A stretch of DNA of 64,000 nucleotides, from NCBI GenBank assembly GCA_051953655.1, contig JBQCIO010000106.1, forward strand, positions 8,052-72,051, read 5' to 3'. The translations under genes were made by a program, and so were the position numbers. This document shows positions 9,610-53,690 of the stretch, piece by piece. The DNA is from Motilibacteraceae bacterium. GTDB lineage: Bacteria; Actinomycetota; Actinomycetes; Motilibacterales; Motilibacteraceae. A model generated the notes under the pieces. It ran no database searches and was not told where the DNA came from. It saw nothing but the letters and a program-made list of their open reading frames with translations. Position 1 is the stretch's first letter, and every line of letters begins with the position of its first letter.

Positions 9610-9635
9610 CGCCGTGTCAGCGCTATCGCTACCGA

Positions 9636-10260: not shown

Positions 10261-10351
10261 ATGACATCCACGATGTCGGCGCTCTTTCGGCGGCGCTTAA
10301 GCATCCGAGAACGCGACGCTACGAACCACCCTCTCGGACTAGCCCTAACGG

Positions 10352-10390
10352 CTGTGGCCCCGACCAGTCGCACGACTGACGGGGCCACAG
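10352..10390 (-). terminator. 11-bp stem hairpin downstream of pilC
   Basis: CTGTGGCCCCG (10352-10362) pairs with CGGGGCCACAG (10380-10390). The loop itself contains the small palindrome CAGTCGCACGACTG. It lies about 80 nt after the pilC stop. Confidence 0.45.
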
Positions 10391-10469
10391 GAGCGTGACG
10401 ATGAGCAGGCGTCGCTAGCGGCGATGTCCTCAAGGCGGTATAACGACCGGTGAGGCACGACCCAGCGTC

Positions 10470-11693: not shown

Positions 11694-11704
11694 GCGTATC
11701 CCTC

Positions 11705-13438
11705 TCAAGCCCGGCCGGTGAGCCGGTTGAAGTCCTCGACGTGGTGGCACTTCTCGAGACCGTGCTCGTAGGTGATCTGACCGCGCCGCACCAGGTCGGC
11801 GAGGTGCTGGTCGAGCGTGTGCATGCCGTGCTGCTGGCCGGCCTGCATCGCGGAGTAGATCTGATGGGTCTTGCCCTCGCGGATGAGGTTGCGGATGGCC
11901 GGGGTGGCCATCATGACCTCGGTGGCGACGACGCGGCCCTTGCCGTCGGGCGTCTTGCACAGGGTCTGGCAGACGACGCCCTGGATGGCGCCGGCCAGCT
12001 GCACGCGCACCTGCTGCTGCTGGTGCGGCGGGAAGACGTCGATGACGCGGTCGATGGTCTGCGCGGCGTCCTGGGTGTGCAGGGTGGCGAAGACCAGGTG
12101 GCCGGTCTCGGCGGCGGTGAGGGCCACCGAGATGGTCTCCAGGTCGCGCATCTCGCCGACCAGGATGATGTCGGGGTCCTGGCGCAGGACGTGCTTGAGC
12201 GCGTTCTGGAAGGACCAGGTGTCCTCCCCCACCTCGCGCTGGTTGACCACGCAGCTCTGGTGGCGGTGGAGGAACTCGATCGGGTCCTCCACCGTCATGA
12301 TGTGGTCCTTGCGGGTCCGGTTAGCCAGGTCGACGATCGCGGCCAGCGTCGTCGACTTGCCCGAGCCCGTGGGACCGGTGACCAGGACGAAGCCGCGCGG
12401 CAGCTGGGCGAAGTTCGCCACCACCGGGGGGACGCCGAGGTCCTCGAGCTTCTTGATCTCGTAGGGGATGAGCCGGAACGCGGCGCCCAGGGCGTCGCGC
12501 TGGCGGTAGAGGTTCACGCGGAAGCGGGCCCGGCCCGGGACCGAGTAGGAGAAGTCGAGCTCGAGCTCCTCCTCGAACTTCTCCCGCTGCTTCTGGGTGA
12601 GGATCGCGTACATGACCCGCTGGATGACCGGCGGCGTCATGACCGGGTAGTCCTCGAGCTGGGTCAGCTCGCCGTGCAGCCGGATGGTCGGGCGGGTGCC
12701 GCTGGTGATGTGCAGGTCCGAGGCCTTGAGCTCGAGGACCTTCTCCAGGATCTCGTTGAGGTTGAGGTCGTCCTCGGTCTGCTGCGCCTCGGTGGAGGCG
12801 CGCGAGTACGCCTCCTCGTCGGCCTCGGACTCCTCCACGACCACCGGGCCGAGGGTGAACGTCTCCGGCTCCGGTTCCGGGACCAGCGACAGCGGCGTCG
12901 ACGCGGGCGCGGCGGCCTCGGGGGCGAGCAGGTACGACGTCGACGACGGCTGCTCGACGGGCGGGATCGTGTAGGTCTGGTCGTACGACGGCTGGTAGGA
13001 CAGGTCCTCGACCTGGCGGACCTGCGGCGCGTACGCCGACGTCTCCCCCGCCGGCTGGTAGCCGGTCTGGGCCAGCGCCTCGAACGAGGACGGCGCGAAC
13101 GGCTGGGTCTCCCCCGCCGGGTCGAAGTGCACCGCCTCGTAGGAAGGGGGCGCGGCGGCGGGCTCGGGCTGCCACGACGCGGCGTAGGACTGCCACTCCG
13201 AGCCAGCGCCCGCGGTGTAGGAGGACGCCGGCGCGCTGAGCGCGTCGTCGACCGGAGCCGCCGGCGCGGGCGGCTGGTAGCCACCGGTGGCGTCGAAGGA
13301 GTAGCTCCAGCCACCGGCGCCGCCGTCGGCGGCGAGCGGCGACGGCCCGGGCGCGAAGCCGCCGGCCAGCTGCTCGGGCTCCTCGCCCGTCGGGTATCCC
13401 GGAGTGGTCACCGTCGCATCCCCTCGTGCTCGTCCCAC
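11705..13438 (-). CDS. pilT: twitching-motility retraction ATPase PilT with a ~224-aa low-complexity N-terminal extension
   Basis: The C-terminal ~350 aa is a canonical PilT: ASDLHITSGTRPTIRLHGEL, Walker A GPTGSGKSTT, DPDIILVGEMRDLETI, HLVFATLHT, and AIRNLIREGKTHQIYSAMQ. The preceding 224 aa are Pro/Ala/Tyr/Gln/Ser-rich but keep strong G/C third-position bias. They also fill what would otherwise be a 770-nt gap. Confidence 0.88.
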   Translation of the reverse strand: MGRARGDATVTTPGYPTGEEPEQLAGGFAPGPSPLAADGGAGGWSYSFDATGGYQPPAPAAPVDDALSAPASSYTAGAGSEWQSYAASWQPEPAAAPPSYEAVHFDPAGETQPFAPSSFEALAQTGYQPAGETSAYAPQVRQVEDLSYQPSYDQTYTIPPVEQPSSTSYLLAPEAAAPASTPLSLVPEPEPETFTLGPVVVEESEADEEAYSRASTEAQQTEDDLNLNEILEKVLELKASDLHITSGTRPTIRLHGELTQLEDYPVMTPPVIQRVMYAILTQKQREKFEEELELDFSYSVPGRARFRVNLYRQRDALGAAFRLIPYEIKKLEDLGVPPVVANFAQLPRGFVLVTGPTGSGKSTTLAAIVDLANRTRKDHIMTVEDPIEFLHRHQSCVVNQREVGEDTWSFQNALKHVLRQDPDIILVGEMRDLETISVALTAAETGHLVFATLHTQDAAQTIDRVIDVFPPHQQQQVRVQLAGAIQGVVCQTLCKTPDGKGRVVATEVMMATPAIRNLIREGKTHQIYSAMQAGQQHGMHTLDQHLADLVRRGQITYEHGLEKCHHVEDFNRLTGRA

Positions 13439-13541: not shown

Positions 13542-15257
13542 TTACACGACGACGCGGAGGATCTCGTCGATGGACGTGACGCCCTGGCGCACCTTGTCCA
13601 TCCCGTCGTTCCGCAGCGTGATCATGCCCTGCTCGCGGGCGACCTCGCCGACGGCGGAGGCCGAGGCGCGCTCGACGCAGAGCCGCTCGATCTCCTCGGT
13701 GACCGGCATGACCTCGTGCAGCGCGAGCCGGCCCTTGTAGCCGGTTTTCGCGCACACCGAGCAGCCCACCGGGCGGAACAGCTCGGGCAGCTCCTCGCCG
13801 TCCTGCCACGGGTAGCGGGTGGACAGCAGCTGCTCCGGCGTCGGCGTGTAGGGCTCCTTGCACTTGCTGCACAGCCGGCGCGCGAGCCGCTGGGCCAGCA
13901 CGCAGTCAAGCGCGGAGCCGACGAGGAACGGCTCGATGCCCATCTCGGTCAACCGGGTCACCGCCGACGGCGCGTCGTTAGTGTGCAGCGTGGAGAGCAC
14001 GAGGTGACCGGTGAGGGCGGCCTCGACCGCGATCTGCCCGGTCTCGTGGTCACGGATCTCACCGATGAGCACGACGTCGGGGTCCGAGCGAAGGATCGAG
14101 CGCAGCGCCGCGGCGAACGTCAGGCCGGCCTTCTGGTTGGTCTGCACCTGGTTGATGCCCGGCAGCCGGTACTCGACCGGGTCCTCGACCGTGATGACGT
14201 TGATCTCCGGCCGGCTGACGATGTTCATCGTCGCGTAGAGCGTGGTCGACTTGCCCGAACCGGTCGGGCCGGTGACCAGGATCATCCCGTAGGGCTTGGT
14301 GAAGCTCACCGAGTAACGGTCGTAGTTGGACGGCGAGAAGCCGAGGTCGGCCAGGTCCAGCCGTGCGGTGGAGTTGTCCAGGATTCGCATGACGACCTTC
14401 TCGCCCCACACCGTGGGGAGGGTCGCGACGCGGAGGTCGACCTTCTTGCCGTGCGCGTTCACCGACAGGCGGCCGTCCTGCGGGATGCGCCGCTCGGCGA
14501 TGTTGATGTCCGCCATGATCTTGAGGCGGCTGATGACGCCGGACTGGATCGCCTTGGGCGAGCGCATGACCTCGTGCAGCACGCCGTCGATGCGGAAGCG
14601 CACCCGCAGGTCGTGCTCGGTCGGCTCGAGGTGGATGTCGGAGGCGCGGTCCTGGATGGCCTGGGTGATGAGCAGGTTGACGTACTTGACGATCGGCGCG
14701 TCCTCGACGATCTCCTTGACCTTGGAGAGGTCGTCCTCGTCCTCGGCCTGCGCGTCGAGCACGCTGGTGAGGTCGTCGAGGTCGGAGTCCGCGCGGTAGA
14801 AGCGGTCGATGGCCGCGAGCACGTCGCCGCGGGTGGCGACGACGGCGCGCACCTCCATGCCGGTGATGGAGCGCAGGTCGTCGATGGCGAAGACGTTGGC
14901 CGGGTCGGCCATCGCCACCAGCAGCCGGCCCTCCTCGAACCCGATCGGCAGCGCGGTGTGCCGGCGCGCGACGGTGCCGGGCACGCGGCCGATCGCGGAG
15001 CCGTCGACGGCGTAGTCGGTGAGCTCGACGAAGCGCAGCCCGATCTGCGTGGCCAGGGCGGCGACGAGCTGGGCCTCGGTGAGCACGCCGGAGTCGACCA
15101 GCACCCGACCGAGGCTGCGGCCCTGCCGCTGCTGCTCCTCGTAGGCGCCGACCAGCTGGTCCTCGCTGACCAATCCCCCCTCGAGGAGGATGTCGCCGAG
15201 CTGCTTCACCCCGCGCTCCCGTCCGTCACGTCGTCCACTCCACCATCGGGCGGACAC
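13542..15257 (-). CDS. pilB: type IV pilus extension ATPase PilB (GspE family)
   Basis: It has an N-terminal MshEN/GSPII_E_N-like region (LGDILLEGGLVSEDQL...LGRVLVDSGVLTEAQL), Walker A GPTGSGKSTT, and DPDVVLIGEIRDHET. It also has a tetracysteine motif (CSKC...CSVC). The more likely start is GTG 15209 (VKQLGDILL), which has GGGAG upstream. Confidence 0.93.
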   Translation of the reverse strand: MSARWWSGRRDGRERGVKQLGDILLEGGLVSEDQLVGAYEEQQRQGRSLGRVLVDSGVLTEAQLVAALATQIGLRFVELTDYAVDGSAIGRVPGTVARRHTALPIGFEEGRLLVAMADPANVFAIDDLRSITGMEVRAVVATRGDVLAAIDRFYRADSDLDDLTSVLDAQAEDEDDLSKVKEIVEDAPIVKYVNLLITQAIQDRASDIHLEPTEHDLRVRFRIDGVLHEVMRSPKAIQSGVISRLKIMADINIAERRIPQDGRLSVNAHGKKVDLRVATLPTVWGEKVVMRILDNSTARLDLADLGFSPSNYDRYSVSFTKPYGMILVTGPTGSGKSTTLYATMNIVSRPEINVITVEDPVEYRLPGINQVQTNQKAGLTFAAALRSILRSDPDVVLIGEIRDHETGQIAVEAALTGHLVLSTLHTNDAPSAVTRLTEMGIEPFLVGSALDCVLAQRLARRLCSKCKEPYTPTPEQLLSTRYPWQDGEELPELFRPVGCSVCAKTGYKGRLALHEVMPVTEEIERLCVERASASAVGEVAREQGMITLRNDGMDKVRQGVTSIDEILRVVV

Positions 15258-39755: not shown

Positions 39756-39812
39756 GCGGATCTTGCTGCACGGCCACGCTCAGGGTGGGTGCAGGAGGTC
39801 TCAAGATCCGGC
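39756..39812. terminator. nested hairpin between convergent genes (bidirectional terminator candidate)
   Basis: The outer stem is GCGGATCTTG (39756-39765) with CAAGATCCG(G)C (39802-39812). The inner stem is CTGCAC (39766-39771) with GTGCAG (39789-39794). It lies between the GH42 stop (39740) and the immunity-like gene stop (39823). Confidence 0.55.
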
Positions 39813-39822
39813 GTCGATGGCG

Positions 39823-40179
39823 CTAAGGAACCGGCTGATCGTCGACCGAGCCAGGACGCAGCCCTTGCGCCTCCTCCGGCGGAGGGCCGACGAGGAACTG
39901 CCGTTCACCTGGCTGAGGCACCAGCCACGCTGACCGGTCCCTGAGGTCGAGCGATCGCGCCGACGAGGCGAGCGGCTCTGGCACGCCGTCCATCCCCTCG
40001 CGGACATAGAGCGTGACCATCCTCTTTTCGATGAGGGACTCGATGACGTCCGCGCACTCGCCGGGAGCCGCTAGTGGGTCCACTCCGCAGGCAGACCTGA
40101 TGCGCCAACCGACCTCCCAGAGGCCGTAGAGGTCCTCGTCCGCGAGTTCCAGAATCTCGCGCTCGATGTCCTGCTTCAC
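39823..40179 (-). CDS. putative immunity protein (small acidic cytoplasmic protein)
   Basis: 118 aa. Its GTG start overlaps the toxin stop (GTGA). It is acidic (EREILELADEDLYGLWEVGW...), has no signal peptide and lies in the AT-richer segment. I recognise no family. Confidence 0.55.
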   Translation of the reverse strand: MKQDIEREILELADEDLYGLWEVGWRIRSACGVDPLAAPGECADVIESLIEKRMVTLYVREGMDGVPEPLASSARSLDLRDRSAWLVPQPGERQFLVGPPPEEAQGLRPGSVDDQPVP

Positions 40180-41363
40180 AACGCTGGATTCCCCATGAGA
40201 GGGATGGGGTCAGAGACCTCACCGTTACGACTGATACGCATATACGGCCCCTGCTTGACTGGATTCGGATCGGAGCGCTTTCCAGGCATGATCCGGATCT
40301 GCTCACCGAGGACTTCGGGATTGGAGTAGCGGATACCTAGGCCACCCTTCTTGGCATTTGTGGCCGACTTGATCCAATTCGAAGGTATCAGGCGCTCGAC
40401 GTCGGCAGGTGTGGCGCCGCGCAGACTTGCGATGTCCGCGAGATCTCGCGTCGCCTGGTGAGGTGCTCGCCCGACGCCATGCTCAGCGCCCTCTTTCGCC
40501 GACCTTTCCGCCGCCTTCTCCGCGCCCCTCGCCGCCTCCCCTCCCTTGCCGACCGGGCCGAGCACCATCCCGGCGAGCGTGCCGGCCGTGATGCCGAGCG
40601 AGTGGGTCCAGTCGCCGCCGTCGTCGCGCCAGACGTCCAGCCCGAGGGACTCCTCGGTGGTGCGTACCGGGTGGACGACCTGGTCCCACATCGCCGCCGG
40701 CAGGCCGGCCACGTTCCGAGCCCATCGCCCGCGGTCGACCAGCGCCTCGCCGGTCAGCGCCCACACGCCCTTCGCCGGGTCGACGACGGAGGACTGGAAG
40801 AAGCCGCGGAAGCCCTGGGTGGCGCGGTCCCCCGCGCTCATCCCTCGTGCGTGGGCCGGCACCTGCCCCCACAGCGTGTCCAGAGCCCGGGCGGCGGCGC
40901 CGACGGCCGTCCGGTACGCCTCCAGCGCCCGCTCGTGGCGGGCGTGCGCCGCCCGCCACCGCTGGTCCAGGTCCGCGCTGCCCGGATCCGGCAGTCCGGC
41001 GGCCACCAGCACCGCCCTGCGCTGCCGCTCGGCCTCGACGTCGGCCAGCTCCCGCGAGCACGCCGCCACCTCGGCCTGGGCCCGCTCGACCACCTGCGCA
41101 TACGCGCTGAGGGTCTCGGCCGCCCGAGCCGCCACCCCGGCCGCCAGCCCCAGCCGCTGGCCGACGTCGTCGCGGCCCGCGCCGAACGCCGTGGCCGCGG
41201 GCCCGGTCCAGACCGGGTCGGCTGTCGGCAGCGCGTCCGACGCGGCTGCAGCCAGCGACGAGACCTGCCGCAGCCGGAGCACGACCTGCCAGAGCGCCGC
41301 TGCATCCACCCGCGGCGCGGGCAACACCTCCCCCGCGTAGCCGCCCCCGACCCCTGCCCGCAC
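40176..41363 (-). CDS. polymorphic-toxin-like protein: WXG100/LXG-like helical N-terminal domain + variable C-terminal module
   Basis: 395 aa. The N-terminal ~170 aa are Ala-rich and helical, with a W-x-G turn (DPVWTGPAATAFGAGRDD) and coiled helices (AETLSAYAQVVERAQAEVAACSRELADVEAERQRR). A Gly/Ala/Lys linker follows. The C-terminus reads PSNWIKSATNAKKGGLGIRYSNPEVLGEQIRIMPGKRSDPNPVKQGPYMRISRNGEVSDPIPLMGN. The C-terminal coding DNA is about 57% G+C in the 120-nt sample I counted (40181-40300). Confidence 0.6.
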   Translation of the reverse strand: MRAGVGGGYAGEVLPAPRVDAAALWQVVLRLRQVSSLAAAASDALPTADPVWTGPAATAFGAGRDDVGQRLGLAAGVAARAAETLSAYAQVVERAQAEVAACSRELADVEAERQRRAVLVAAGLPDPGSADLDQRWRAAHARHERALEAYRTAVGAAARALDTLWGQVPAHARGMSAGDRATQGFRGFFQSSVVDPAKGVWALTGEALVDRGRWARNVAGLPAAMWDQVVHPVRTTEESLGLDVWRDDGGDWTHSLGITAGTLAGMVLGPVGKGGEAARGAEKAAERSAKEGAEHGVGRAPHQATRDLADIASLRGATPADVERLIPSNWIKSATNAKKGGLGIRYSNPEVLGEQIRIMPGKRSDPNPVKQGPYMRISRNGEVSDPIPLMGNPAL

Positions 41364-45822: not shown

Positions 45823-45891
45823 GTCCTTGTCATCGGCATGCGCGACGCGAGCCTGAGCGGCAGCCGGCTCAGGCGGACCTGGTGTCGACAG

Positions 45892-46932
45892 TCATCCAAG
45901 GTCCGTCCAACGGTCAGGGAACCTGCCGGCTGCCGGCCGACACGCCTTGATCCTGGCCGGTGCGCCAGCGGTGAGGAAGCGGCCCCAGGCGACGGCGATC
46001 AGTACCAGCGCGGTTCCGGCCCAGCCGGCGGGGCCGAGCGGGGCACCGAGGAACGCGCCGAGGACGGCAGCGAAGACGGGTTCGGTGCCCAGCAGCAGGC
46101 CGACCTGGGAGGGGCGGATCGTGGCCAGGGCGCGGTTCTGCACGAGGAACGGCAGCACGGTGCAGCCGAGCGTGAGGTAGCCGAGCGAGGCCCAGCCGCC
46201 GGTGTCTGCTGGAAAGCCTCCGTGCCGGGTCGCGGGCACGAGAAGCGCCAGAGCTGCGGTCAAGGTGGCCACCAGGGCCAGTTGGATGGTGCTGTCGGCG
46301 AGGGGATCAGGTTGGCGGTGGCCGCTGCTGCGGGCGGTGAGGGACAGGTGGCCGGCCCGGGCGACAGCTGCGGACAGAACGAGAAGGTCTCCACGCCAGG
46401 TACTGCTGCCGCCGGCGCGGGCCAGCAGCGCCACGCCGGCCACGCTGAGCGCCCCGGCCCCGAGCAAGCCGCGGGGCAGCGGGACCCGCTGCAGGACCGT
46501 CTCGGCCAGCGGGGTGAGGACGACGAAGACGCTGATGACGACGCCCGCGTGCGCGGGGCTGGTGCGGACGACGCCGTAGGTCTCCAGCAGGAAGACCGCG
46601 GTGAGCGCCGTGCCGGGCAGGACGTTCGCGCGCAGGCTCGCCGCGAGGCTCACCGGCTTCCGGTCAGCCCGCCGTCGGCGCCGCGCGGCAGCCAGTGCCA
46701 GCAGCACCACGACGGCGGCGCCGAAGCGGACTGCAAGGACCAGGGCCACAGACCCGCCTTCGGCGGCGTTCCGGGCGGCCAGGTAGCTCGACCCCCACAG
46801 GGCGGCGACGAGCAGGAGCAGGCCGTCGTCCACCCGCGGCTGGCGGCGTCGGGACGTGCTGGGTCGCTGGGTGGTGGGTCGGGCGTCGGTGTAGGTCGGA
46901 GCGCCGGAGATGTCGTTCACCTCGCCGCCCAC
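45892..46932 (-). CDS. EamA/DMT-family transporter
   Basis: It has about 10 TM helices and two EamA-like halves (LLLVAALWGSSYLAARN... and ...LGCTVLPFLVQNRALATIRPSQVGLLLGTEPVFAAVLG). The N-terminal ~35 aa and the exact start are uncertain. Confidence 0.8.
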   Translation of the reverse strand: MGGEVNDISGAPTYTDARPTTQRPSTSRRRQPRVDDGLLLLVAALWGSSYLAARNAAEGGSVALVLAVRFGAAVVVLLALAAARRRRRADRKPVSLAASLRANVLPGTALTAVFLLETYGVVRTSPAHAGVVISVFVVLTPLAETVLQRVPLPRGLLGAGALSVAGVALLARAGGSSTWRGDLLVLSAAVARAGHLSLTARSSGHRQPDPLADSTIQLALVATLTAALALLVPATRHGGFPADTGGWASLGYLTLGCTVLPFLVQNRALATIRPSQVGLLLGTEPVFAAVLGAFLGAPLGPAGWAGTALVLIAVAWGRFLTAGAPARIKACRPAAGRFPDRWTDLG

Positions 46933-47025
46933 GTTCCGTGGCGGGCGAAGGCGCGCGTGCGTGGCGCAGGCGTCGGACGCACGGGCCGTCCCTCACCGAT
47001 GGGTTCTGCGGGGGCACGTGCGGTC

Positions 47026-47771
47026 CTAGTGCTCACGGAGATGCGCGTCCTCAACCGTCACGGCGGGCAGGGCGATGAGGCCGACGGCCAGGAGCAGCAG
47101 GTCCTGACCGATCATGACCGTCCACAGAGCACCACCGTGCAGACCGGTGGTGTGCAAGAGCAGGTCGAGTACCGCATGGGTCACAGCCAACGCCCACAGG
47201 GCGTTGGTCCGTAGCCGCAGCACGCTGTACCCGAAGCCGAAGGCGGCGGCTCCGACGGCCTGGGCCGCGGTGACGGCGGCGTTCTGACCGAAGAGGACGT
47301 TCGCCAGGTGAGCGGCGCCGAAGACGGCAGCGGAGAGGGCAGCGGCTCTTCCCGCTCCCATCGGGAGCGCGGCGCGAGCACGACGCCGCGGAACCACAGC
47401 TCCTCGTAGACGCCGGTGGCGATGTAGCCAACGGTCAGCACGAGCAGGGTCGACGGCTCCGGCGACCAACCCCAGGCGAGCGGCACCAGAGCCAGTGTGA
47501 CCGGGACGACGAGCCAGCGCCTCGTCCGCCACGTGCTCGGGCCAGCGGCGGCCAGGGACGACCAGCCCACCCGCCGTGCCACGGCCAGGCTCAGCACGAG
47601 CAGTAGCAGCACGACGACCAACCGGCGAAGCGTCTCGTCCGAGTGAGGCGCGACCCACGCGAGCAGCAACCCACCCGCCAGCGTGGCGCCCACGCTGACC
47701 GCGGCCAGGGCGAACACGTCCCGGACAGGGCGGCTCCGACCGGCCTCGACCTCCAGCGCGAGGCCGGTCAC
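47026..47771 (-). pseudogene. CPBP-family intramembrane glutamic endopeptidase (CAAX protease-like), split by a 1-nt frameshift near 47365-47380
   Basis: Motif 1 (YEELWFRGVVL) is in the frame of ORF 47181-47900. Motifs 2 and 3 (SAAVFGAAHL and THAVLDLL) are in the frame of ORF 47026-48123. The two frames meet in a GC run (gcgcgccgcg). The N-terminal start is GTG 47771, which forms a GTGA overlap with the upstream stop. It could be a true pseudogene or an assembly error. Confidence 0.6.
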
Positions 47772-48298
47772 GATGCCACCCGCTGGGCCCCGGTCGCGGC
47801 CTCGGCCGTGAGCGGCGCCGGACGACGTGAGCGCAGAGCCACAGAGATCGTCCGCGACAGCACCATCGCGAGCGCCATGGCGACGAACGCCGCGGTCCAC
47901 GCGTCGGCTCCCGTGATGGCGTGGTCGCGGGAGAACTCACCGACGGTGTGGGCGCCCGGGCCGGTGGCCCACTCAGCGAAGGCGATGCGGCCGCCGATCG
48001 CGACGACCCAGGCCGCGGCGTATCCGACGCCGGTCGTGGCGACGAGTCGACCGCTTCGGTCGTGCAGTCGGGTGGACGCGCCGGCCGCCACGCCCAGGAC
48101 GAGGCCCACCGCACCGAGCACACCGATCAGCAGGAGATCGTGGCCTTGGGTCGGTAGCGGCAAGAGGAAGATCGACGCCACGACGACGATGGCCAGCGGC
48201 ACGACGAACGTGCCCTGCGTGATCGGCCTGGTCCCGAGGTTGCGCGCGAGGGCCCAGGTCAGGAGGGCCAGAGACAGGATCCACTGGGCGGTGCTCAT
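47768..48298 (-). CDS. small polytopic membrane protein (DUF1453-like, tentative)
   Basis: Trimmed from 47768-48328 to the ATG at 48298. It begins MSTAQWILSLALLTWALARN..., has about 4-5 TM helices and is translationally coupled to the CPBP gene. Confidence 0.6.
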   Translation of the reverse strand: MSTAQWILSLALLTWALARNLGTRPITQGTFVVPLAIVVVASIFLLPLPTQGHDLLLIGVLGAVGLVLGVAAGASTRLHDRSGRLVATTGVGYAAAWVVAIGGRIAFAEWATGPGAHTVGEFSRDHAITGADAWTAAFVAMALAMVLSRTISVALRSRRPAPLTAEAATGAQRVAS

Positions 48299-48379
48299 CG
48301 AGAGCTCCCTTCGAGGTTGATGCCTCAAAGGTGCCGCTCAGGGCTCGCCACGGCCTCGGTGACAAAGGCCGCCGCGGTG

Positions 48380-48417
48380 GTGACCATCGGCCGTCCCCCT
48401 CTCGGCCGGATGACGTA
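48380..48417 (-). promoter_or_regulatory. conserved 38-nt upstream block, copy 1 (TACGTCATCCGGCCGA-N7-ACGGC-N5-GTCAC)
   Basis: The minus-strand reading is TACGTCATCCGGCCGAgagggggACGGCcgatgGTCAC. It lies 81-118 nt upstream of the 48298 start and immediately after the response-regulator stop. Confidence 0.6.
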
Positions 48418-48423
48418 GTGGCC

Positions 48424-49104
48424 CTACTGCAGCGTTCCGACCCCCGCCGCGTCGATCAGCCCCTCGCGCACTGCCCACATGGCGGCCTGCGTGCGGCTGG
48501 CCAGGCCGAGCTTGGCGAGGATGTTGGAGACGTGGGTGCGGGCGGTGCGTTCTGCCACCCCCAGCGTCCGCGCGATGTCGCGATTGGTCTGCCCTTCGGC
48601 GATCAGCACGACCACCTCGCGCTCGCGGTCGGTCAGGTCGGCCGCCGCGGTCCTCGGCGTCCGTAGCCCTGCCGCCAGCGCGGCGGCCGCCGCCGGGTCC
48701 AGCCGGACCTCCCCTGCCACGGCGGCACGGATCGCGGCGACCACGTCCTCAGCGTCCGAGTCCTTGAGCAGGTAGCCGGTGGCCCCGGCCGCGAGCGCGG
48801 CGCGGATGCGCGCTTCCTCGACGAAGGACGTGACGGCGATGACCTCGATGCCGGGCCACGTGGCCTTCACCTGCGCCGTGGCGTCGACGCCGTCGAGGTG
48901 AGGCATCTGCAGGTCCATGAGGACGACGTCCGGCGTGCGCTCCTGTGACGCCAGGACGCTCAGCCGGGCCAGCGCCTCGCGGCCGTCGGCCGCCTGACCG
49001 ACGACCTCGATGCCGGGTTCGGTGCTGAGGTACGACTCCAGACCTGCCCGCACGACAGTGTGGTCGTCGACGAGGAACACCTCGATCGGCTGCCCGAGAT
49101 CCAC
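48424..49104 (-). CDS. NarL/FixJ-family response regulator (REC + LuxR HTH)
   Basis: Trimmed from 48424-49188 to GTG 49104. It reads IEVFLVDDHTVVRAGL, has the phospho-acceptor region PDVVLMDLQMP, and the HTH LTDREREVVVLIAEGQTNRDIARTLGVAERTARTHVSNILAKLG. Confidence 0.92.
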   Translation of the reverse strand: MDLGQPIEVFLVDDHTVVRAGLESYLSTEPGIEVVGQAADGREALARLSVLASQERTPDVVLMDLQMPHLDGVDATAQVKATWPGIEVIAVTSFVEEARIRAALAAGATGYLLKDSDAEDVVAAIRAAVAGEVRLDPAAAAALAAGLRTPRTAAADLTDREREVVVLIAEGQTNRDIARTLGVAERTARTHVSNILAKLGLASRTQAAMWAVREGLIDAAGVGTLQ

Positions 49105-49108
49105 GCAG

Positions 49109-49705
49109 TCATTGTGGCGTTCCCGACTCGCACGTGCCAGGACGTGTGCGCCCGGGCTCAGACACGTGCAGGACGGCGTAGCGGTCACCGGGGGCCTCCT
49201 CCGGCACCTGGCGAGACCATAGGGTCAGGGTGACGCGGTGCCAGGTCGACGGGTCGATGCCGGTCACCACGCAGGTGACGCCCGGATGCCTCGAGGCCCT
49301 CGCCGCCTCGGCCCCCATCCGGTCGCTGAGCTCGATGAGCGAGAGTCCTGGGCCGATGCTGTCGACCGTTCGTGTCGCGGCGACCGGCACGACGTCACGT
49401 GCAGGCCCCTCGCAGACGGCGATGGAGTGCCAGGTTCGGATGGTCGGGCGCCCGAAGTCGTTGCAGATGCCGTCGAAGCCGGGCCCGAAGACGAACTGGT
49501 TCATCCCGTCGACCTCCGCCCACAGGTAGAAGGGCGCGTACTGGTTCACAGGCGACCCGTCGCGGCCGCGTTCGCGCATCAGGTACGCCTTGAAGCCGAG
49601 CCCCGGGAAGTCGTCGGTGCGCGACCCGCGGCTCGCCACGCGTTCGTGGATGATGCCCATGTCGTAGTCGGCGGGCAGGGTGATCTCGTACTGCATCAGA
49701 TGCAT
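49109..49705 (-). CDS. DUF4865-like protein
   Basis: Trimmed from 49109-49963 to the ATG at 49705. It reads MHLMQYEITLPADYDMGIIHERVASRGSRTDDFPGLGFKAYLMRERG. The family is assigned from memory of this conserved N-terminus. Confidence 0.6.
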   Translation of the reverse strand: MHLMQYEITLPADYDMGIIHERVASRGSRTDDFPGLGFKAYLMRERGRDGSPVNQYAPFYLWAEVDGMNQFVFGPGFDGICNDFGRPTIRTWHSIAVCEGPARDVVPVAATRTVDSIGPGLSLIELSDRMGAEAARASRHPGVTCVVTGIDPSTWHRVTLTLWSRQVPEEAPGDRYAVLHVSEPGRTRPGTCESGTPQ

Positions 49706-50094
49706 CGGTGCTCCTGAAAGGGTCGCAGTTCCTCGGTGGTGAGCGCGCAGAAAAGGTTGCCCTCCGGGTCGGCGAACACCTGCCACCGGCCCTTCGGGTC
49801 CTGCCACTGAGGAACCGCGCCGAGCGACGTCAGCCGATCGAGGTCGGCAACGTCGTCGAGTCGGATGTCGAGGTGCACGCGCCCCGGGGGCGGTGAGAGC
49901 TGTTCCGCCGGGCTGATCCACACGTGCGGGCCGTCGCGCCGGCCGAGCAGCACCGACTCGCACTCGCCGAGTGTCCCGCGCTCGATCGCCTGGGCGTCCT
50001 GCGGATCGACGGGAAGGGCGAGCACAGCGGACCAGAAGGCGGCGAGCACGGCCGGACGCCGGCTGTGGATGGTGATCGCCTCAAGATGCGACAC
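49696..50094 (-). CDS. VOC (glyoxalase/bleomycin-resistance fold) family protein
   Basis: The track ORF is 49696-50130. The likely start is GTG 50094 (VSHLEAITIHSRRPAVLAAFW...). It also contains HLDIRLDD and FADPEGNLFC. Confidence 0.7.
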   Translation of the reverse strand: MSHLEAITIHSRRPAVLAAFWSAVLALPVDPQDAQAIERGTLGECESVLLGRRDGPHVWISPAEQLSPPPGRVHLDIRLDDVADLDRLTSLGAVPQWQDPKGRWQVFADPEGNLFCALTTEELRPFQEHRCI

Positions 50095-51295
50095 GGGTGC
50101 CTCGTTCGTCGTGAGTGGCCGTCCCTGCACCCCGCGGCAGAAAGGCGTCCAGTGCCCGGATCACGAGCCCCGGCGTCTCGAGCGTCGGCATGTGCGGTGC
50201 GCCAAGGAGCTCGACGTAGGTGGACCCAGGGACGTTGTCGGCGAGTCGGGTCATCACCGCCGGCCCGGTCGAGGCGTCCTGCTCACCGCACAGCACAAGC
50301 GTGGGGCGTGGCCAACCCCGGAGTCGGCCGGCCACATCGAGCCGCGAGAAGGAGCGCCACGCCGCGGCGACCTGGCGTGGCTCACCCCGCAGTACGCACT
50401 CGCGGGCGTACCGCACGCCCCAGCCGTTCTCGGCCAACGCCTCCGGCGTGAACCACCGTGTGAGAGAGGGAGCGACCTGCGCGGCCACACCGTCGTGCTC
50501 GACCGCTTCCGCCCGGCCGCCGAAGGAGTCGAAGGCTTGGTCGGTGGTGGCGGCAAGCGTCAGCGACAGCACGCTGTCCGGGTGCCGTACGGCGAAGGTC
50601 TGCGCCACGGCGCCGCCGTACGAGAGTCCGACGACGTGAGCGCGTTCGACGCCCGTCGCCGCCATCACTTCGAGCAGGTCGTCCGCCAGCTGCGAGAGCT
50701 CAGTAGGTGCCGGCGCTTCCGTGGCGGCGCCGTGTCCGCGTAGGTCGTAGGCGAACACCCGACGACCGACGGCCAGCTGCCGGATGATCGGCTCCCACAT
50801 GCGCCAGGTGAGTCCGAGAGCGTGCAACAGGACGACGGCCGGGCCGGTGTCTCCGTACTGCGCGAGCTGGGTGGTGTGGTCCGACAGGGTCAGAGGGCGC
50901 ACCGGCACGGCGACGCCGTCGTCGGCACCCAGGCCGTCGAGCACGTCTCGCACCACGTCCAGTCCGTTCAACGCCCGAGGGAAGCCGGCGTACACCGACG
51001 TGTGCTCAGCAAGGGCTCGCAGCTCGTCAGCCGTGACGCCGTGCTGCAGGGCCGCTTTCAGGTGCACGCGCAGCTGAGGCTCGACACCGCCGAGCGCGAT
51101 GAGCACGGCGACAGTGGCGACCTCGCGGTCGCGCCAGGACAGCCGCGGGTCCGCCAGTGGTTGGCTGAACGCGCCGTCGAGCAGCCAGCGGAACATCGCA
51201 GGAGCCTCGGCCCGCAGTGAGGCCAGAGAAGTCTCGGGGTCGGTCCCGACGAGCGACCGGAAGGTGCGCGGGCCTCGCGCGTCGACGGTGGTCAT
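50081..51295 (-). CDS. fusion protein: carboxymuconolactone decarboxylase (CMD) domain + alpha/beta-hydrolase (enol-lactonase-like) domain
   Basis: Trimmed from 50081-52294 to the ATG at 51295 (404 aa). The N-terminal CMD motif is LSWRDREVATVAVLIALGGVEPQLRVHLKAALQHGVTADELRALAEHTSVYAGFP. The C-terminal hydrolase has VVLLHALG, the nucleophile elbow VVGLSYGG, and GAPHM. Confidence 0.8.
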   Translation of the reverse strand: MTTVDARGPRTFRSLVGTDPETSLASLRAEAPAMFRWLLDGAFSQPLADPRLSWRDREVATVAVLIALGGVEPQLRVHLKAALQHGVTADELRALAEHTSVYAGFPRALNGLDVVRDVLDGLGADDGVAVPVRPLTLSDHTTQLAQYGDTGPAVVLLHALGLTWRMWEPIIRQLAVGRRVFAYDLRGHGAATEAPAPTELSQLADDLLEVMAATGVERAHVVGLSYGGAVAQTFAVRHPDSVLSLTLAATTDQAFDSFGGRAEAVEHDGVAAQVAPSLTRWFTPEALAENGWGVRYARECVLRGEPRQVAAAWRSFSRLDVAGRLRGWPRPTLVLCGEQDASTGPAVMTRLADNVPGSTYVELLGAPHMPTLETPGLVIRALDAFLPRGAGTATHDERGTRVAS

Positions 51296-51405
51296 ACAGT
51301 GCCTCTCGTAGGGGGGCGATGGGCCGGCGGCTGACCTGCCGCCTGGCCTCACCAGCGTTGCGGTCGCGCGACCCGCGCACCTCGGTGCTGCGACCGGGGC
51401 GGGCC

Positions 51406-51443
51406 GTGACGTTGTGCCGTCGGCCGGTCGGCCGGATGACGTA
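51406..51443 (-). promoter_or_regulatory. conserved 38-nt upstream block, copy 2
   Basis: The minus-strand reading is TACGTCATCCGGCCGAccggccgACGGCacaacGTCAC. The 16-mer is identical to copy 1 and the spacing of the ACGGC and GTCAC elements is the same. It lies 110-147 nt upstream of the 51295 start, just after the kinase stop. Confidence 0.6.
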
Positions 51444-51471
51444 CCTGCCGCTTCCTGCGAGGTCCGCGCTG

Positions 51472-52995
51472 CTACGCCACCGGCACGCTCACCGTGACGA
51501 CGCAGCCGGCACCCGGCGCGCTGTCCACGGTGAGGCGGCCGCCGATGGCCGTTGCGCGATCGCGCATCGTCACCTGGCCCAGGTGGCCCTCCTGCACGGA
51601 GGCGGGGTCGAAGCCCCGGCCGTCGTCGCGCACCTGCACGGTCAACAGGTGCGCCGCGTCGTCCGCGCGTACCTGGACGGCGACGGTGGTGGCCGCCGCG
51701 TGCTTGACGGTGTTGTGCAGCGCCTCCAGCACCAGGCGGTACAGGTGCTCCTCCGTTCGCGGATCCAGCGCGAGTCGGCGCTCGGGACCGGCGACGGTGA
51801 TAGTCAGCCCTTCCCGGGCGCTGAGCGCCGCCGCCTGCCGCGTCAGCGCGACCACGAGACCTTCGTTCTCCAGCGCCCCGGGGCGCAGCTCGAAGATCAG
51901 CGCCCTCATCTCGGCGAGCGCACCGCGCGTCAGTGCCGCCAAGGTCTCCAGGCTGGTGGCGAGAGGGTCGCTCGGCGCAACCCCGTGGCCGGCGAGGCGT
52001 CGCTGCGCAGCACGCGCGTGCATCGTCATCGAGAACAGCGCCTGGCTGACCGAGTCGTGCAGCTCTCGCGCGAGACGCTGCCGCTCGACGAGCGTGGCGT
52101 GCGACTCGGCTGCGCCGAACAGTCGCGAGTTCTCGACGGCGACTGCGGACTGGTCGGCGATCGCCTGCAGGAACGCGCGCTCGGCCCCGTCCAGCTGGTA
52201 GTCGGCTGCGACGTAGAGCAGCAGGCACCCCACGCACCGCCCTCGGGCGCCCAGCGGCACTACGACGACGTCCTGGAACTGCATCGCCACCCACGTCGAG
52301 TGCAACGGGCCATAGCGAGGGTCGGCCTCGGCGTGGCCACGAAAGTCTCGGATGACCGTGACGTCGGTCGCCAACGTGACATTGCGGATCGGCGAGTCGA
52401 CCCCGGCGGCGTAGGCGGCTTCGACCCGCTCGCGATAACCCTCGGGAAGCCCGTCATCGCCGTAGGCGGAGAGGTCCCGCAGCTCCTCGTCCTCCCACAC
52501 CACGACGGCTGCCGCCTCGGCACCCGTGGCAGAACGCACGCTGCGGGCGACCTGACGCAGCGTCCCTTCGAGCGGGTGCTCGAGCGTCATGGCATCGGCG
52601 ATCCCGGCGAAGGCCGCGATCCGGCGTTCCAGCTGCTCGTAGGCCGCCACCTGCTCTGTGACGTCGGTGGCGGTGACGAGAAGGCCGCGGGCCCCGCTCT
52701 CCAGCTCGATCGGGGCGAGGACCAGGTCCCAGTGGATCGCGGAGCCGTCCTGACCGGTCAGCGAGACTCTACGACGCCCGACGTCCGCGGAGGGCGCGCC
52801 AACCGCAGAGAGCCACCGACCGTCGAACCGGCTCCCGAAGAGCCCAGCCCACCCCGGGCTGCTACGCAGCACGCGGCCTTCGGCGTCGAGCAGAGCCACT
52901 GCTATCGGCAGATGACTGACAAGGCATTCCCACGACGGCAGCACCTCAGCGACACCGTGGCTTCGCGAGGGGGTCTCAGCCACCCAGTGGTCCAT
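51472..52995 (-). CDS. sensor histidine kinase (PAS + GAF + HisKA_3 + HATPase_c; cytoplasmic)
   Basis: Trimmed from 51472-53460 to the ATG at 52995 (507 aa). It has a PAS-like region (LPIAVALLDAEGRVLRSSPGW), a GAF-like middle, the H-box ERQRLARELHDSVSQALFS (the NarL-partner HisKA_3 type), and the ATPase motifs EALHNTVKHA and DDGRGF. Confidence 0.88.
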   Translation of the reverse strand: MDHWVAETPSRSHGVAEVLPSWECLVSHLPIAVALLDAEGRVLRSSPGWAGLFGSRFDGRWLSAVGAPSADVGRRRVSLTGQDGSAIHWDLVLAPIELESGARGLLVTATDVTEQVAAYEQLERRIAAFAGIADAMTLEHPLEGTLRQVARSVRSATGAEAAAVVVWEDEELRDLSAYGDDGLPEGYRERVEAAYAAGVDSPIRNVTLATDVTVIRDFRGHAEADPRYGPLHSTWVAMQFQDVVVVPLGARGRCVGCLLLYVAADYQLDGAERAFLQAIADQSAVAVENSRLFGAAESHATLVERQRLARELHDSVSQALFSMTMHARAAQRRLAGHGVAPSDPLATSLETLAALTRGALAEMRALIFELRPGALENEGLVVALTRQAAALSAREGLTITVAGPERRLALDPRTEEHLYRLVLEALHNTVKHAAATTVAVQVRADDAAHLLTVQVRDDGRGFDPASVQEGHLGQVTMRDRATAIGGRLTVDSAPGAGCVVTVSVPVA

Positions 52996-53082
52996 CCTCG
53001 ACTCCCGACTCGTGCCCCTGCACCGACCGAGCCTGCCATGCCGGTCGGCGGCGCGTCGACGCCTTGCGCCTGGTCCGTCTCG

Positions 53083-53095
53083 GTCATCCGGCCGA
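53083..53095 (+). promoter_or_regulatory. third, inverted partial copy of the locus motif (GTCATCCGGCCGA)
   Basis: It is a 13/13 match to the core of copies 1 and 2 but on the plus strand. It therefore has the same orientation relative to the plus-strand yciI-like gene (start 53211, 115 nt downstream) and lies 88-100 nt upstream of the divergent kinase start. Confidence 0.5.
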
Positions 53096-53210
53096 GCTGC
53101 TGGCGACGTATCCGCAGGGACGGGTCGAGCCATCCCGCCGAGGTGACGACGCGCGCAGCGGGAAAGACTGGGCGACGCGCAGATCATCCGACGACAGAGG
53201 AGTCCGCAGC

Positions 53211-53537
53211 ATGTCAGCCGAAAGCACGTCACCGGCCCCTGAGCTCTTCTCGGGAACCGCCTTCGTCCTCCTGGTCGACTACCTCTTTCCGTTGTCGCGG
53301 ATCGACCAGCTGCTGGACGACCACCGCGCCTGGCTGGACGGCCACTTCGCCGACGGCACCTTCCTGGTCTCGGGTCCGCGGGTTCCTCGCGTCGGCGGCA
53401 CGATCCTGGCGACCGGTACGTCGCGCGACGACCTGGAACGCAGGATCGCGTCCGATCCACTGGTCCTGGCGGGTGCGGCCCGCTACGAGGTCGTGGAGTT
53501 CAGCCCCACCCGCGGCCCCTACGCCACGGTGGCGTAA
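53211..53537 (+). CDS. YciI-family protein
   Basis: Trimmed from 53064-53537 to the ATG at 53211, which has AGAGGAG upstream. It is 108 aa and reads ...FVLLVDYL...HRAWLDGHFADGTFLVSGP...GGTILA...DPLVLAGAARYEVVEF. Confidence 0.7.
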   Translation: MSAESTSPAPELFSGTAFVLLVDYLFPLSRIDQLLDDHRAWLDGHFADGTFLVSGPRVPRVGGTILATGTSRDDLERRIASDPLVLAGAARYEVVEFSPTRGPYATVA

Positions 53538-53690
53538 CCGACGTCGTCGAGCCACCCCGCGCGGGCCGGGCGAATCCCGACACTGCTGACCGCTGGCCGG
53601 ACATTGTGGACAGGCCTACCAGGGCCATCCCCTGGTCGTTCACCCCTCGACCGATGTCGCCCTGTGCGGTCTGGCCCCCGACAGAACGGC

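Follow-up and report, generated by a model that had tools for sequence, protein, structure and literature searches.

At a locus in the genome of a Motilibacteraceae bacterium, the 3' end of a gene for a 395-residue protein and the small gene downstream of it form one exchangeable cassette, replaced in place at a locus that is otherwise collinear with that of a sister genome. To judge from its sequence and distribution, this cassette is very probably a polymorphic toxin-immunity pair, in which the C-terminal tip of the larger protein is predicted to be toxic and the 118-residue product of the smaller gene is predicted to neutralize it. This level of confidence applies to the toxin-immunity reading, and not to the export route or the activity of the tip. 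A further proposal, held tentatively and with a little less than even confidence, is that the tip and its acidic partner of ∼110 residues represent an undescribed family that spans many phyla and uses two active-site chemistries, and that here an antibacterial effector of ESX type (T7SSa) has taken up the tip; novelty here was judged against Pfam, NCBIfam, and the PDB, while PT5 and the Tox1-24 families of PMC13483458 were compared by description only.

The window, that is, the whole 64,000-nt stretch of DNA that was analyzed, covers positions 8,052-72,051 of the forward strand of contig JBQCIO010000106.1 (assembly GCA_051953655.1), and the features discussed below are collected in Table 1. 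A first-pass annotation, made from the letters alone, had recognized in it the signature of a polymorphic toxin system, and this claim is largely supported by the swap of the tip, by the many scaffolds that carry it, and by the gene linked downstream: unrelated tips occur on a shared N-terminus, the tip occurs on unrelated scaffolds, and the putative immunity gene covaries with the tip.

Table 1. Features of the predicted toxin-immunity locus (positions are those of the window)
Feature	Position	Strand	Basis or remark
Putative toxin gene, 395 aa	40176-41363	minus	GTG start 41363, TGA stop 40176-40178; ORF call
N-terminal WxG helical domain, residues ∼20-166	40866-41306	minus	AF2, Foldseek, Pfam, hhalign
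WxG turn motif, W52-T53-G54	41202-41210	minus	family alignment and AF2 model
Conserved middle region, residues 167-268	40560-40865	minus	conserved across P0001-P0006
Ala/Glu/Lys/Gly linker, residues 269-303	40455-40559	minus	DNA alignment with L011
C-terminal putative toxin tip, 92 aa, residues 304-395	40179-40454	minus	tip profile, AF2
Putative immunity gene, 118 aa, GTG start	39823-40179	minus	overlaps toxin stop
Swapped cassette, tip and putative immunity gene	39823-40454	minus	nonhomologous to sister-genome allele
22-nt remnant, CGCCATCGACGCCGGATCTTGA	39801-39822	minus	just past immunity stop; sequence reading and alignment

The most direct evidence for the exchange comes from a sister Motilibacteraceae genome in which the same locus (L011) is collinear by blastn, with 85-88% identity on either flank. 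The gene order FAD_binding_3, toxin, downstream gene, GH42, and 2-Hacid_dh onward is common to the window, L011, and a further locus (L025). As the earlier annotation had foreseen, relatives exist that share the N-terminal domain and carry other tips: five proteins (P0002-P0006) are 58-77% identical to the window protein over the N-terminal ∼290 residues and end in an RNase A-like tip (PF18431), the profile of which matches 5e3e_B (CdiA-CT/PF18431). In two of them (P0002 and P0004) this tip sits at exactly the same position of the orthologous locus, and the RNase A-like tip is therefore a functional alternative allele of the window tip. In the sister allele it is followed by a gene for 303-304 residues that is unrelated to the 118-residue protein.

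Fine DNA alignments with L011 place the junctions of the cassette at 40454/40455 and 39822/39823. The upstream junction falls at the linker codon Q303: homology is kept, a 24-nt indel included, through AEHGVGRAPHQ and is then lost at once. On the other side it returns directly past the stop codon of the 118-codon gene, where the remnant listed in Table 1 matches the last 22 nt, TGA stop included, of the gene for 304 residues that follows the RNase A-like tip in the other allele.

Base composition tells a similar story. The estimates of a window above 70% GC and of about 57% over 40181-40300 proved accurate (0.727 and 0.567), and so did the impression that both the 3' part of the toxin gene and the following ORF are lower in GC, with values of 0.59 for the final 92 codons (vs 0.73 for the window) and 0.67 for the 118-codon gene (GC3 0.80); the cassette as a whole has 0.63. 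Codons 1-275 of the toxin gene have a GC of 0.78 and a GC3 of 0.94, to be compared with 0.59 and 0.65 for codons 300-395, and a GC as low as that of the tip occurs in only 0.86% of the 291-nt windows across the 64 kb. The third-position values, taken together with the replacement in the sister genome, bear out the earlier description of a compositionally foreign and swappable tip. At the DNA level the cassette shares only 69-73% identity with the other tip and immunity loci sampled, which excludes a recent transfer from any of these.

The tip itself, estimated earlier at 80-90 residues and found to be slightly longer (92), is basic (pI 9.9). Its profile matches at least 599 protein clusters (50% identity level, E≤1e-3), and the match is C-terminal in every one of them. 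The carriers are varied, and include proteins with RHS_repeat/DUF6531, SpvB and FG-GAP, PrsW and PT-TG, PT-HINT, Trypsin_2, WXG100_2, or T7SS_signal domains, from Actinomycetota, CPR, Alphaproteobacteria, Cyanobacteria, Gemmatimonadota, Bacteroidota, and Chloroflexota. The AF2 model of the tip (pLDDT 86) has an alpha-alpha-beta4 topology, and conservation is highest at Gly and Pro positions. Conserved residues, basic and aromatic in the main (R345, R357, K370, Y374, R376, and S378), form a set on adjacent strands, and the subtype found in the window has no conserved His or Cys. Positions 357/359/370 are R/M/K in 61 of 135 sequences and hydrophobic/E/H in 41 of them; that is, R357 and K370 of the window subfamily give way to E359 and H370 in a sister subfamily.

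The statement that this domain belongs to no assignable toxin family has stood up to every search. Neither the toxin, the tip, nor 74 diverse tips gave a significant family in Pfam, NCBIfam, PADLOC, or PHROGs, and the full 395-residue protein had no match in a PDB sequence search. The suggested structural search was run with Foldseek on the tip model and found no fold match: none in the PDB or BFVD at E≤0.001 (best TM-score 0.38), and no RNase, nor any RelE, barnase, colicin, or HicA neighbor, among the top 50 PDB entries. The literature search returned nothing matching the sequence motifs or PF21725. Two candidate relatives were considered and set aside. Lin0431 appeared in a PDB profile search (E 0.005), and its match was fragmentary and out of order and was judged spurious. 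HicA was considered on the strength of a likeness, seen by eye, of 'GKTPEEIDKIMKEKGW..GGGTRY' to its N-terminus; hhalign with an E. coli HicA sequence gave a probability of 0.3%, the HicA_toxin model was touched by three of the 74 tip members at E≥0.07, and HicA was absent from the Foldseek list.

What accompanies the tip is equally informative. The downstream ORF had been described as acidic and as overlapping the toxin stop, and both features are confirmed: the 118-residue protein has a pI of 4.3 and a net charge of -11.5, and its GTG (40179-40177) overlaps the TGA of the toxin (40178-40176) in a GTGA, the toxin gene ending ...AAT CCA GCG TTG TGA. The same 4-bp overlap occurs in three other loci (L001, L002, and L003). 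The protein is devoid of a signal peptide and matches nothing in Pfam, NCBIfam, PADLOC, PHROGs, or the PDB, where a profile search with the immunity family was empty as well; ten homologues, scanned likewise, gave no significant family. The homologues share the motif 'ilEL.xEDxYG.WE', and 13 of 14 have a pI of 4.3-5.1.

The idea of a cognate small immunity-like gene gains weight from its genomic company. A homologue follows directly 3' of the tip in 10 of the 12 genome loci scanned, drawn from eight or more phyla, as well as in four additional metagenome contexts; the loci that have it belong to Actinomycetota, CPR, Alphaproteobacteria, Cyanobacteria, Gemmatimonadota, and Bacteroidota (examples beside the tip are L001, L002, L003, L007, and L013). 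From the sequence comparisons, then, the downstream gene travels with the tip rather than with the N-terminus. Could the pair nevertheless be a decayed low-GC insertion with a chance ORF behind it, functionless today? At one homologous locus (L018) the tip is truncated and the partner gene is missing, and the atypical GC content would fit such an origin, but in the window both ORFs are intact, the residues that are invariant in the tip family are all retained together with the partner motif, and the identical toxin protein, recorded as a hypothetical protein in a Motilibacteraceae MAG, occurs on seven contigs from several sequencing runs. Its start is also kept in two homologues (P0002 and P0006). 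We regard decay as extremely improbable.

Another possibility is that the pair serves within the producer, as a toxin-antitoxin or phage-defense module whose N-terminus is a regulatory or sensor domain. Tips free of a delivery domain (92-101 residues) do occur with the partner, in conserved chromosomal contexts (L003-L006, on 16 contigs, L017, and L020), and therefore the pair can also exist as a nonsecreted two-gene module; moreover, a 4-bp gene overlap is found in many toxin-antitoxin operons. Yet most carriers of the tip are secreted scaffolds of the Rhs, SpvB, PT-HINT, or WXG type, the toxin gene precedes the partner gene, and the replacement of tip and partner as alleles at a single locus is a hallmark of competition toxins. 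Nor does the locus look like a type II toxin-antitoxin system: the tip follows a 300-residue WxG N-terminus, the partner has no detected DNA-binding domain, and both PADLOC and PHROGs are without a match. A module of this kind is thus improbable, if less so than decay, and a toxin for use against competitors, with its immunity protein, is the reading we carry forward.

How would such a pair work? The acidic immunity protein would bind the tip inside the producer and block it, whereas the tip would enter a competitor cell and act in its cytoplasm. If the tip is toxic, this site of action has a high probability, because the immunity proteins lack a signal peptide. The basic tip, its acidic and signal-less partner, and the switch between Arg/Lys and Glu/His together suggest a cytoplasmic and possibly RNA-directed toxin. 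A more precise proposal, metal-independent attack on RNA or some other phosphate-rich substrate, is less likely than not, and is put forward because the tip has no conserved His or Cys, because of the set of R345, R357, K370, Y374, R376, and S378, and because R357/K370 is exchanged for E359/H370.

Set against this is a cytoplasmic tip that is not a nuclease at all, and that would act on a protein or nucleotide by modification or sequestration, or have no catalytic activity; candidates for its target include the translation apparatus, an enzyme of cell division or of cell-wall precursors, and NAD(P). Fold and sequence searches tie the tip to no RNase family, the domain is small, and it is most strongly conserved at Gly and Pro. 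There is also the precedent of PT5, a toxin family with a similar range of phyla that caused cell rounding and not nucleic-acid damage (bioRxiv 10.1101/2021.10.19.465003). On the other hand, toxins that target nucleic acids typically pair a basic tip with a strongly acidic immunity protein, and the two-state switch resembles alternative catalytic sets and not a binding surface. We consider the prospects of a non-nuclease to be about even.

The remaining part of the protein should explain how the tip is delivered. Its N-terminus had been described as helical with a W-x-G turn, and this holds: VWTGPAATAF is found at residues 51-60, contains the sole WxG of the protein, and in the AF2 model (pLDDT 75-95) occupies the turn between helices 1 and 2 of a helical hairpin, the helices being 21-43, then, after the WxG loop, 55-121 (a long one) and 130-166. 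W52 and G54 are invariant in the six members of the family (P0001-P0006).

As for its relatives, the Pfam PPE profile aligns with the window protein over nearly its full length (positions 20-164 of 165), with E 0.0079 and 16.7 bits, short of the cut-off of 26; it is touched by four of the six family members, all below threshold (best E 3.7e-5). T7SS_signal (PF21725) gave E 0.1 and 12.9 bits (cut-off 27), LXG and WXG100 gave no Pfam match, and the N-terminal domain reached none of the curated thresholds of PF06013, PF04740, PF00823, PF21725, or PF25547. The best Foldseek match is PPE4 (6uuj_E; probability 1.0, TMt 0.57, 23% identity, E 0.25), with PPE15, EspB, and EsxA also among the top matches, the E-values being 0.25 or worse and the alignments to PPE4, PPE15, and EspB having 22-24% identity. 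The N-terminal family was also compared by hhalign with P0130, a protein that combines T7SS_signal (E 5.6e-12) with the same tip as the window toxin: the probability is 93.5% (E 2.2e-7, 187 columns), and the family HMM scores 22.6 bits on it. The same method found no kinship to two other tip carriers, P0110 (WXG100_2) and P0037 (PrsW/PT-TG), and in a metagenome scan with the N-terminal alignment as the query, 544 pattern matches yielded no confirmed one. The domain thus appears to be a WxG helical domain distantly related, at levels below family thresholds, to T7SS substrates. The resemblance to WXG100/LXG-type domains claimed at first therefore stands for the WxG helical bundle and its subthreshold relatives among T7SS substrates, and does not extend to LXG, which is not detectable.

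Between this domain and the tip lie two further regions. The middle one, which contains a WALTGEAL motif and has no Pfam match to PT-TG, is alignable with P0130 as far as residue 249, and AF2 confidence is low across it. A Gly/Ala-rich hydrophobic helix (residues ∼253-272) starts in it and extends four residues beyond; it is the top Kyte-Doolittle segment of the whole protein. The middle region may be a pretoxin or translocation region. The flexible linker noted in the first-pass annotation follows, at residues ∼269-303.

Because no T7SS genes were found in the window, the export route is one that we infer. Core genes of this system had been reported as missing, and indeed none was found among the neighbors annotated out to ∼9 kb on each side, nor among ten large ORFs tested in other parts of the window; the annotated flanks of the sister locus (∼9-10 kb) have no T7SS gene either. 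The toxin gene is not flanked by a small partner gene of the WXG100 or Lap-like type, the 203-nt spacer upstream of it contains no small partner ORF, and the N-terminal region has no YxxxD/E, the only such motif of the protein being inside the tip, at residue 346. These observations could mean that the toxin-immunity reading is right and the route is not type VII, the protein being released by a system not recognized here or by lysis, or anchored at the surface via the helix at 253-272. That every match to a T7SS-substrate family is below threshold, and that many other scaffolds deliver the same tip, would agree with it. Against it, the N-terminus has no detectable relatives other than T7SS substrates, a result on which three independent methods concur (Pfam with PPE, hhalign with P0130, and Foldseek with PPE4, PPE15, EspB, and EsxA). 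Furthermore, actinobacterial T7SS loci are usually unlinked to toxins of this type. A different route is accordingly rather unlikely in our estimation, and export by a type VII (ESX-type) system, as predicted from the N-terminus, is somewhat favored.

If the ESX assignment is true, the locus would be a clear natural case of the recruitment of such a tip by an ESX-type protein in a nonmycobacterial actinobacterium. Polymorphic toxins with antibacterial activity have been studied in depth for T6SS, CDI, and the firmicute T7SSb; the antibacterial substrates of actinobacterial ESX-type systems are still mostly predictions. The locus offers a compact and testable case, with a protein of 395 residues, a clean natural allele swap, and strains that co-occur. 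The pair of tip and putative immunity protein spans CPR bacteria to Bacteroidota with neither a database name nor a structural neighbor, and once its target is defined, hundreds of "hypothetical" C-termini of Rhs and WXG proteins could be annotated along with their immunity genes. The two-state residue switch provides ready hypotheses for active-site mutants, and knowledge of the target would add one more entry to the known toxin activities.

The closest general parallel is with polymorphic toxin systems, a subject reportedly treated by Zhang, de Souza, Anantharaman, Iyer, and Aravind in Biology Direct in 2012. Like these, the locus has a constant N-terminal region, presumably for trafficking, a variable tip, a downstream gene predicted to confer immunity, and cassette exchange, and its tip is common to scaffolds of the Rhs, PT-HINT, PT-TG, SpvB, and WXG types. 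The difference is that the tip and the immunity protein match no model in Pfam or NCBIfam, the Ntox, Tox, and Imm families there included. The protein has no RHS match, in contrast to Rhs/YD-repeat toxins, in which RHS repeats and an Rhs core with a DPxGL cleavage motif precede the tip, and to many other carriers of the tip, and the tip has no sequence similarity to the CdiA-CT/RNase A-like tip (PF18431).

RelE and YoeB, small metal-independent RNase toxins, differ from each other in having Arg/Lys or Glu/His at the same positions. The tip resembles RNases of this type in being small, basic, and alpha+beta, its helices preceding a sheet of four strands, and it shares with them Arg/Lys or Glu/His subfamilies, a subtype (that of the window) with no conserved His or Cys, and an acidic inhibitor. 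It differs from RelE/YoeB and BECR RNases in having no Foldseek or profile similarity to them, and the likeness is one of functional analogy only.

With PPE, EspB, and T7SS_signal domains the N-terminus shares a predicted helical bundle with the WxG at the hairpin turn. It departs from PPE and EspB substrates in the lack of a PPE tripeptide, a PE-type partner, and an N-terminal YxxxD/E, and from PPE proteins in that it ends in a tip of antibacterial toxin type and not in a PPE C-terminal region.

The last comparison is with the W10XG toxins of Firmicutes described in the Pandoomain paper (PMC13483458), which combine W10XG, PT-TG, a linker, and a novel tip. The window protein is actinobacterial, for which the T7SSa/ESX type would be expected; it has a canonical one-residue W-x-G in place of a 10-residue insert, and it is without a PT-TG match, a Lap-like partner gene, or a nearby T7SS gene. 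The two also have features in common. Both have a helical WXG-type N-terminus that was missed by standard annotation because its scores are below Pfam thresholds; in both, ∼260-300 conserved N-terminal residues and a disordered linker lead to a new toxin tip; and in both a downstream immunity gene encodes a protein with no signal peptide, from which a cytosolic target was proposed for the W10XG toxins (PMC13483458).

The toxin gene (395 aa) and the 118-aa gene that follows it share one orientation and overlap: the junction reads ...CCA GCG TTG TGA, and the GTG start of the second gene lies across the TGA stop of the first, exactly the "GTGA" of the first-pass annotation. The toxin has a single WxG, W52-T-G54, within VWTGPAATAF. 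Composition sets the 3' part of the locus apart. The first-pass values, a counted 57% or so GC at 40181-40300 and above 70% by eye for the window, agree with the computed ones (0.567 and a mean of 0.727), and segment GC and GC3 confirm that the C-terminal module and the downstream gene are GC-poorer. Only 0.86% of 291-nt windows across the whole 64 kb are as low as the tip (residues 304-395); the GC-poor tail is genuine, beyond chance fluctuation. Three more GC-poor patches (291-nt GC ≤ 0.62) adjoin a type IV pilus/T2SS-like cluster, and the 520-aa and 598-aa ORFs beside them have no Pfam match at E ≤ 1e-5.

Coordinates and composition of the features discussed in the text
Feature	Window position	Strand	GC	GC3	Source
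Toxin ORF, 395 aa	40176-41363	minus			ORF call
Toxin codons 1-275			0.78	0.94	
Tip codons 300-395			0.59	0.65	
118-aa ORF	39823-40179	minus	0.67	0.80	ORF call
Tip residues 357, 359	40286-40294				
Tip residue 370	40253-40255				
Tip tail, residues 386-395	40179-40208				
Exchanged unit	39823-40454				fine alignment
22-nt remnant	39801-39822				
Second strain-variable block	45861-53685				
GC-poor patches	5057-5738, 8815-9732, 10230-10777				
T2SSF	10473-11960				
T2SSE	11708-13438, 13545-15257				
520-aa ORF	5081-6640				
598-aa ORF	7290-9083				

Searching 5.8 billion proteins through a word index returned an identical protein, recorded as hypothetical in a Motilibacteraceae MAG, and two kinds of relatives. 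Five homologues (P0002-P0006) have the first ∼290 residues in common with the toxin at 58-77% identity, but where it has its tip they carry an RNase A-like (CdiA-CT) domain, Pfam PF18431; these are the N-terminal relatives with different tips that had been anticipated. In four others (P0007-P0010), similarity is confined to the last ∼95 residues: in one the tip is preceded by an Rhs core ('...YTYANNNPVTFSDPTGL'), and the N-termini of two resemble signal peptides.

P0002 lies in the sister MAG GCA_051954955.1, and the gene order around it is that of the window: acetyltransferase, FAD_binding_3, toxin, downstream gene, GH42, 2-Hacid_dh, FGGY, aldolase II, ADH and AP_endonuc_2. P0004, on a short contig, likewise lies between FAD_binding_3 and GH42. 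By blastn, window and sister locus are collinear over 45860-40539 (85.5% identity) and 39822-33001 (88.2%), and a stretch lacking homology separates these blocks. Fine alignment carries the upstream homology through the Ala/Glu/Lys linker, a 24-nt indel included, to codon Q303 (window ∼40455); downstream, it restarts at the first base past the 118-aa stop codon. What was exchanged is thus the tip together with the 118-aa gene, an in-place replacement that agrees with the swappable tip first proposed. Directly 3' of the 118-aa stop stands a 22-nt remnant, CGCCATCGACGCCGGATCTTGA, which matches the final 22 nt, with stop codon, of the sister allele's 304-aa downstream gene. This remnant, together with the RNase A-type tips in the other alleles of the locus, suggests that the window cassette displaced an RNase A-type one. 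The window allele was assembled from SRR31761938, -986 and -993, the sister allele from SRR31761982; these neighbouring accession numbers are consistent with co-occurring strains.

SRR31761993 also yielded P0005, a divergent paralogue (N-terminus 58% identical) with an RNase A-like tip and another gene context. At its locus (L026 3418-4395, L027 2598-3575), the 325-aa gene in the "immunity" position matches PF18431 RNAse_A_bac, so that RNase A-like domains are present in both the toxin and the next gene. A second strain-variable block lies between the FtsH and PAS-GGDEF-EAL genes: 7.8 kb in the window, 1.25 kb in the sister (L011 3503-4752: a 100-aa gene and YidC). Judged by eye, the products of the window version include a membrane protein with multiple passes, a response regulator of LuxR type, a sensor resembling PAS/GAF proteins, and small enzymes; no mobile-element gene was recognised among its genes.

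How widespread is the tip? A profile built from eight tips and scored against 1.84 billion representative proteins matched 599 clusters at E ≤ 1e-3 and 275 at E ≤ 1e-10, and in 131 of 154 re-scored matches the tip ends within 3 residues of the protein C-terminus. Upstream of it stand RHS repeats with DUF6531, SpvB with FG-GAP, PrsW with PT-TG, PT-HINT, Trypsin_2, WXG100_2 or T7SS_signal, and a consensus built on 95 carriers of middling size has an Rhs-core motif ahead of it. When one genome per species was scanned, the tip turned up in Dermatophilaceae, three CPR lineages, two Alphaproteobacteria, Gloeobacterales, two Gemmatimonadota, Kordia, Chitinophaga and a Dehalococcoidia MAG. The first-pass annotation could not assign the tip to a toxin family, and this stands: no Pfam or NCBIfam model matched it in the window protein or 74 diverse members, and Foldseek with its AlphaFold2 model (mean pLDDT 86; two short helices, then four strands) returned nothing at E ≤ 0.001 from PDB (best TM-score 0.38) or BFVD. 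The tip is a large, mobile family without a name.

The 118-aa gene travels with it. Homologues lie directly 3' of a tip-bearing 159-aa protein (L001) and of an Rhs-core protein (L002), each with a 4-bp overlap, and of P0007 (L007, L013); a more distant one follows a stand-alone 101-aa tip (L003-L006). In the genome scan, a 104-128-aa ORF with the N-terminal motif 'ilEL.xEDxYG.WE' is immediately 3' of the tip in 10 of 12 loci, the exceptions being L018, with a truncated tip, and L022. The family has no match in Pfam, PDB, PADLOC or PHROG and, by inspection, no member has a signal-peptide-like N-terminus; 13 of 14 members are acidic (pI 4.3-5.1), set against a pI of 9.9 for the window tip. Following the tip, signal-less and acidic where the tip is basic, the partner has the features expected of a cognate immunity protein whose site of action is the cytoplasm, in line with the immunity-like role first proposed.

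Some of these loci deserve a word of their own. In CPR (Paceibacterota, Saccharibacteria), the tip ends ∼2,080-aa proteins (L014 10-6264, L016 25-6249), and the partner gene begins 2-9 nt past their stop. The Gemmatimonadales tip (L018 5052-5927) stops short of the conserved 'PIPLxGNP' tail, has no partner gene downstream and is probably a decaying copy. Sixteen contigs keep the stand-alone pair (in L003, tip 5001-5306 and 117-aa partner 5303-5656) in one constant chromosomal setting, where there is no delivery domain and an Unstab_antitox gene lies 2 kb off; here the pair may be a cassette left orphaned or may serve in a TA-like role.

Another question is what the tip does. Every position that is invariant among 135 representatives is a glycine or a proline. 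There is no conserved His or Cys, and the polar residues that recur are R345(K), N348, E354(D), Q355, R357, K370, Y374, R376(K), S378 and N392. Positions 357/359/370 co-vary between two states, R/M/K (61/135, the window's included) and hydrophobic/E/H (41/135), with few intermediates. RelE (Lys/Arg/Tyr) and YoeB (Glu/His) differ in a like manner inside one RNase fold. Together with the basic charge of the tip and with a partner that is acidic and signal-less, this RelE/YoeB-like switch makes metal-independent attack on RNA, or on some other phosphate-rich target in the cytoplasm, the favoured activity, if a tentative one; structure and profile searches of the tip gave no support for an RNA-directed activity. 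The best-conserved stretch is the tail 'PIPLxGNPxL' (G391, N392 and P393 ≥95%). Across all scaffold types the protein almost always ends 0-3 residues past it, a pattern suggesting that function depends in some way on the C-terminal tail being free.

As for export, AlphaFold2 is confident for toxin residues 20-166 only: helix 21-43, a loop with W52-x-G54, a long helix 55-121 and helix 130-166. The best Foldseek match of this domain in PDB is PPE4 (6uuj_E, probability 1.0, target TM 0.57, 23% identity), with PPE15, EspB, PPE41 and EsxA also near the top of a list where no E-value is better than 0.25 and BAR-domain helices are interspersed. Pfam PPE matches four of six family members below its gathering threshold (best E 3.7e-5; window protein E 0.0079, over 20-164 of 165 profile positions, also sub-threshold), and T7SS_signal matches the window protein at E 0.1, again below threshold. 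By hhalign, residues 49-249 align (93.5% probability, E 2.2e-7) to P0130, a 399-aa protein that shares the tip and in which the T7SS_signal domain is significant. These three independent lines, each weak, point to type VII secretion substrates. On the other side, Pfam gives no LXG or WXG100 match in the N-terminus, the toxin has no YxxxD/E motif outside the tip, and the 203-nt spacer upstream holds no partner gene. Nor did the annotated flanks, or the ten large ORFs checked from other parts of the window (type IV pilus/T2SS-type ATPases, platform protein, AlaRS, MgsA, FtsH, AspRS), include a T7SS core gene, in agreement with the first-pass annotation. Of the proposed WXG100/LXG resemblance, the helical fold, the WxG in a loop and a faint PPE/T7SS_signal kinship survive; LXG or WXG100 membership finds no support in Pfam. 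On this balance, the domain is most aptly placed, as a sub-threshold member, in the T7SS-substrate helical superfamily, and the export route would be type VII.

Collectively, the alternative tips, the in-place swap, the mobile tip and the co-travelling 118-aa gene indicate that the polymorphic toxin reading was essentially right: judged from sequence, the locus would be a polymorphic toxin with a cognate partner gene, of a known kind whose definition it matches on all features examined. Its value lies in an unusually clean natural cassette swap with junctions at base level, in a probable actinobacterial ESX-type antibacterial effector, and in a widespread family pair, predicted to be toxin and immunity, without name, structure or known activity. 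The tip may or may not equal PT5 (bioRxiv 10.1101/2021.10.19.465003) or one of the 24 new tips that, with cytoplasmic immunity proteins, were described for the nearest architectural analogue, the W10XG + PT-TG + linker + novel-tip class of Firmicutes (PMC13483458). The likeness extends to annotation: in that class (PMC13483458), as in the window toxin, the WXG domain goes unannotated at standard thresholds because its scores fall below them.
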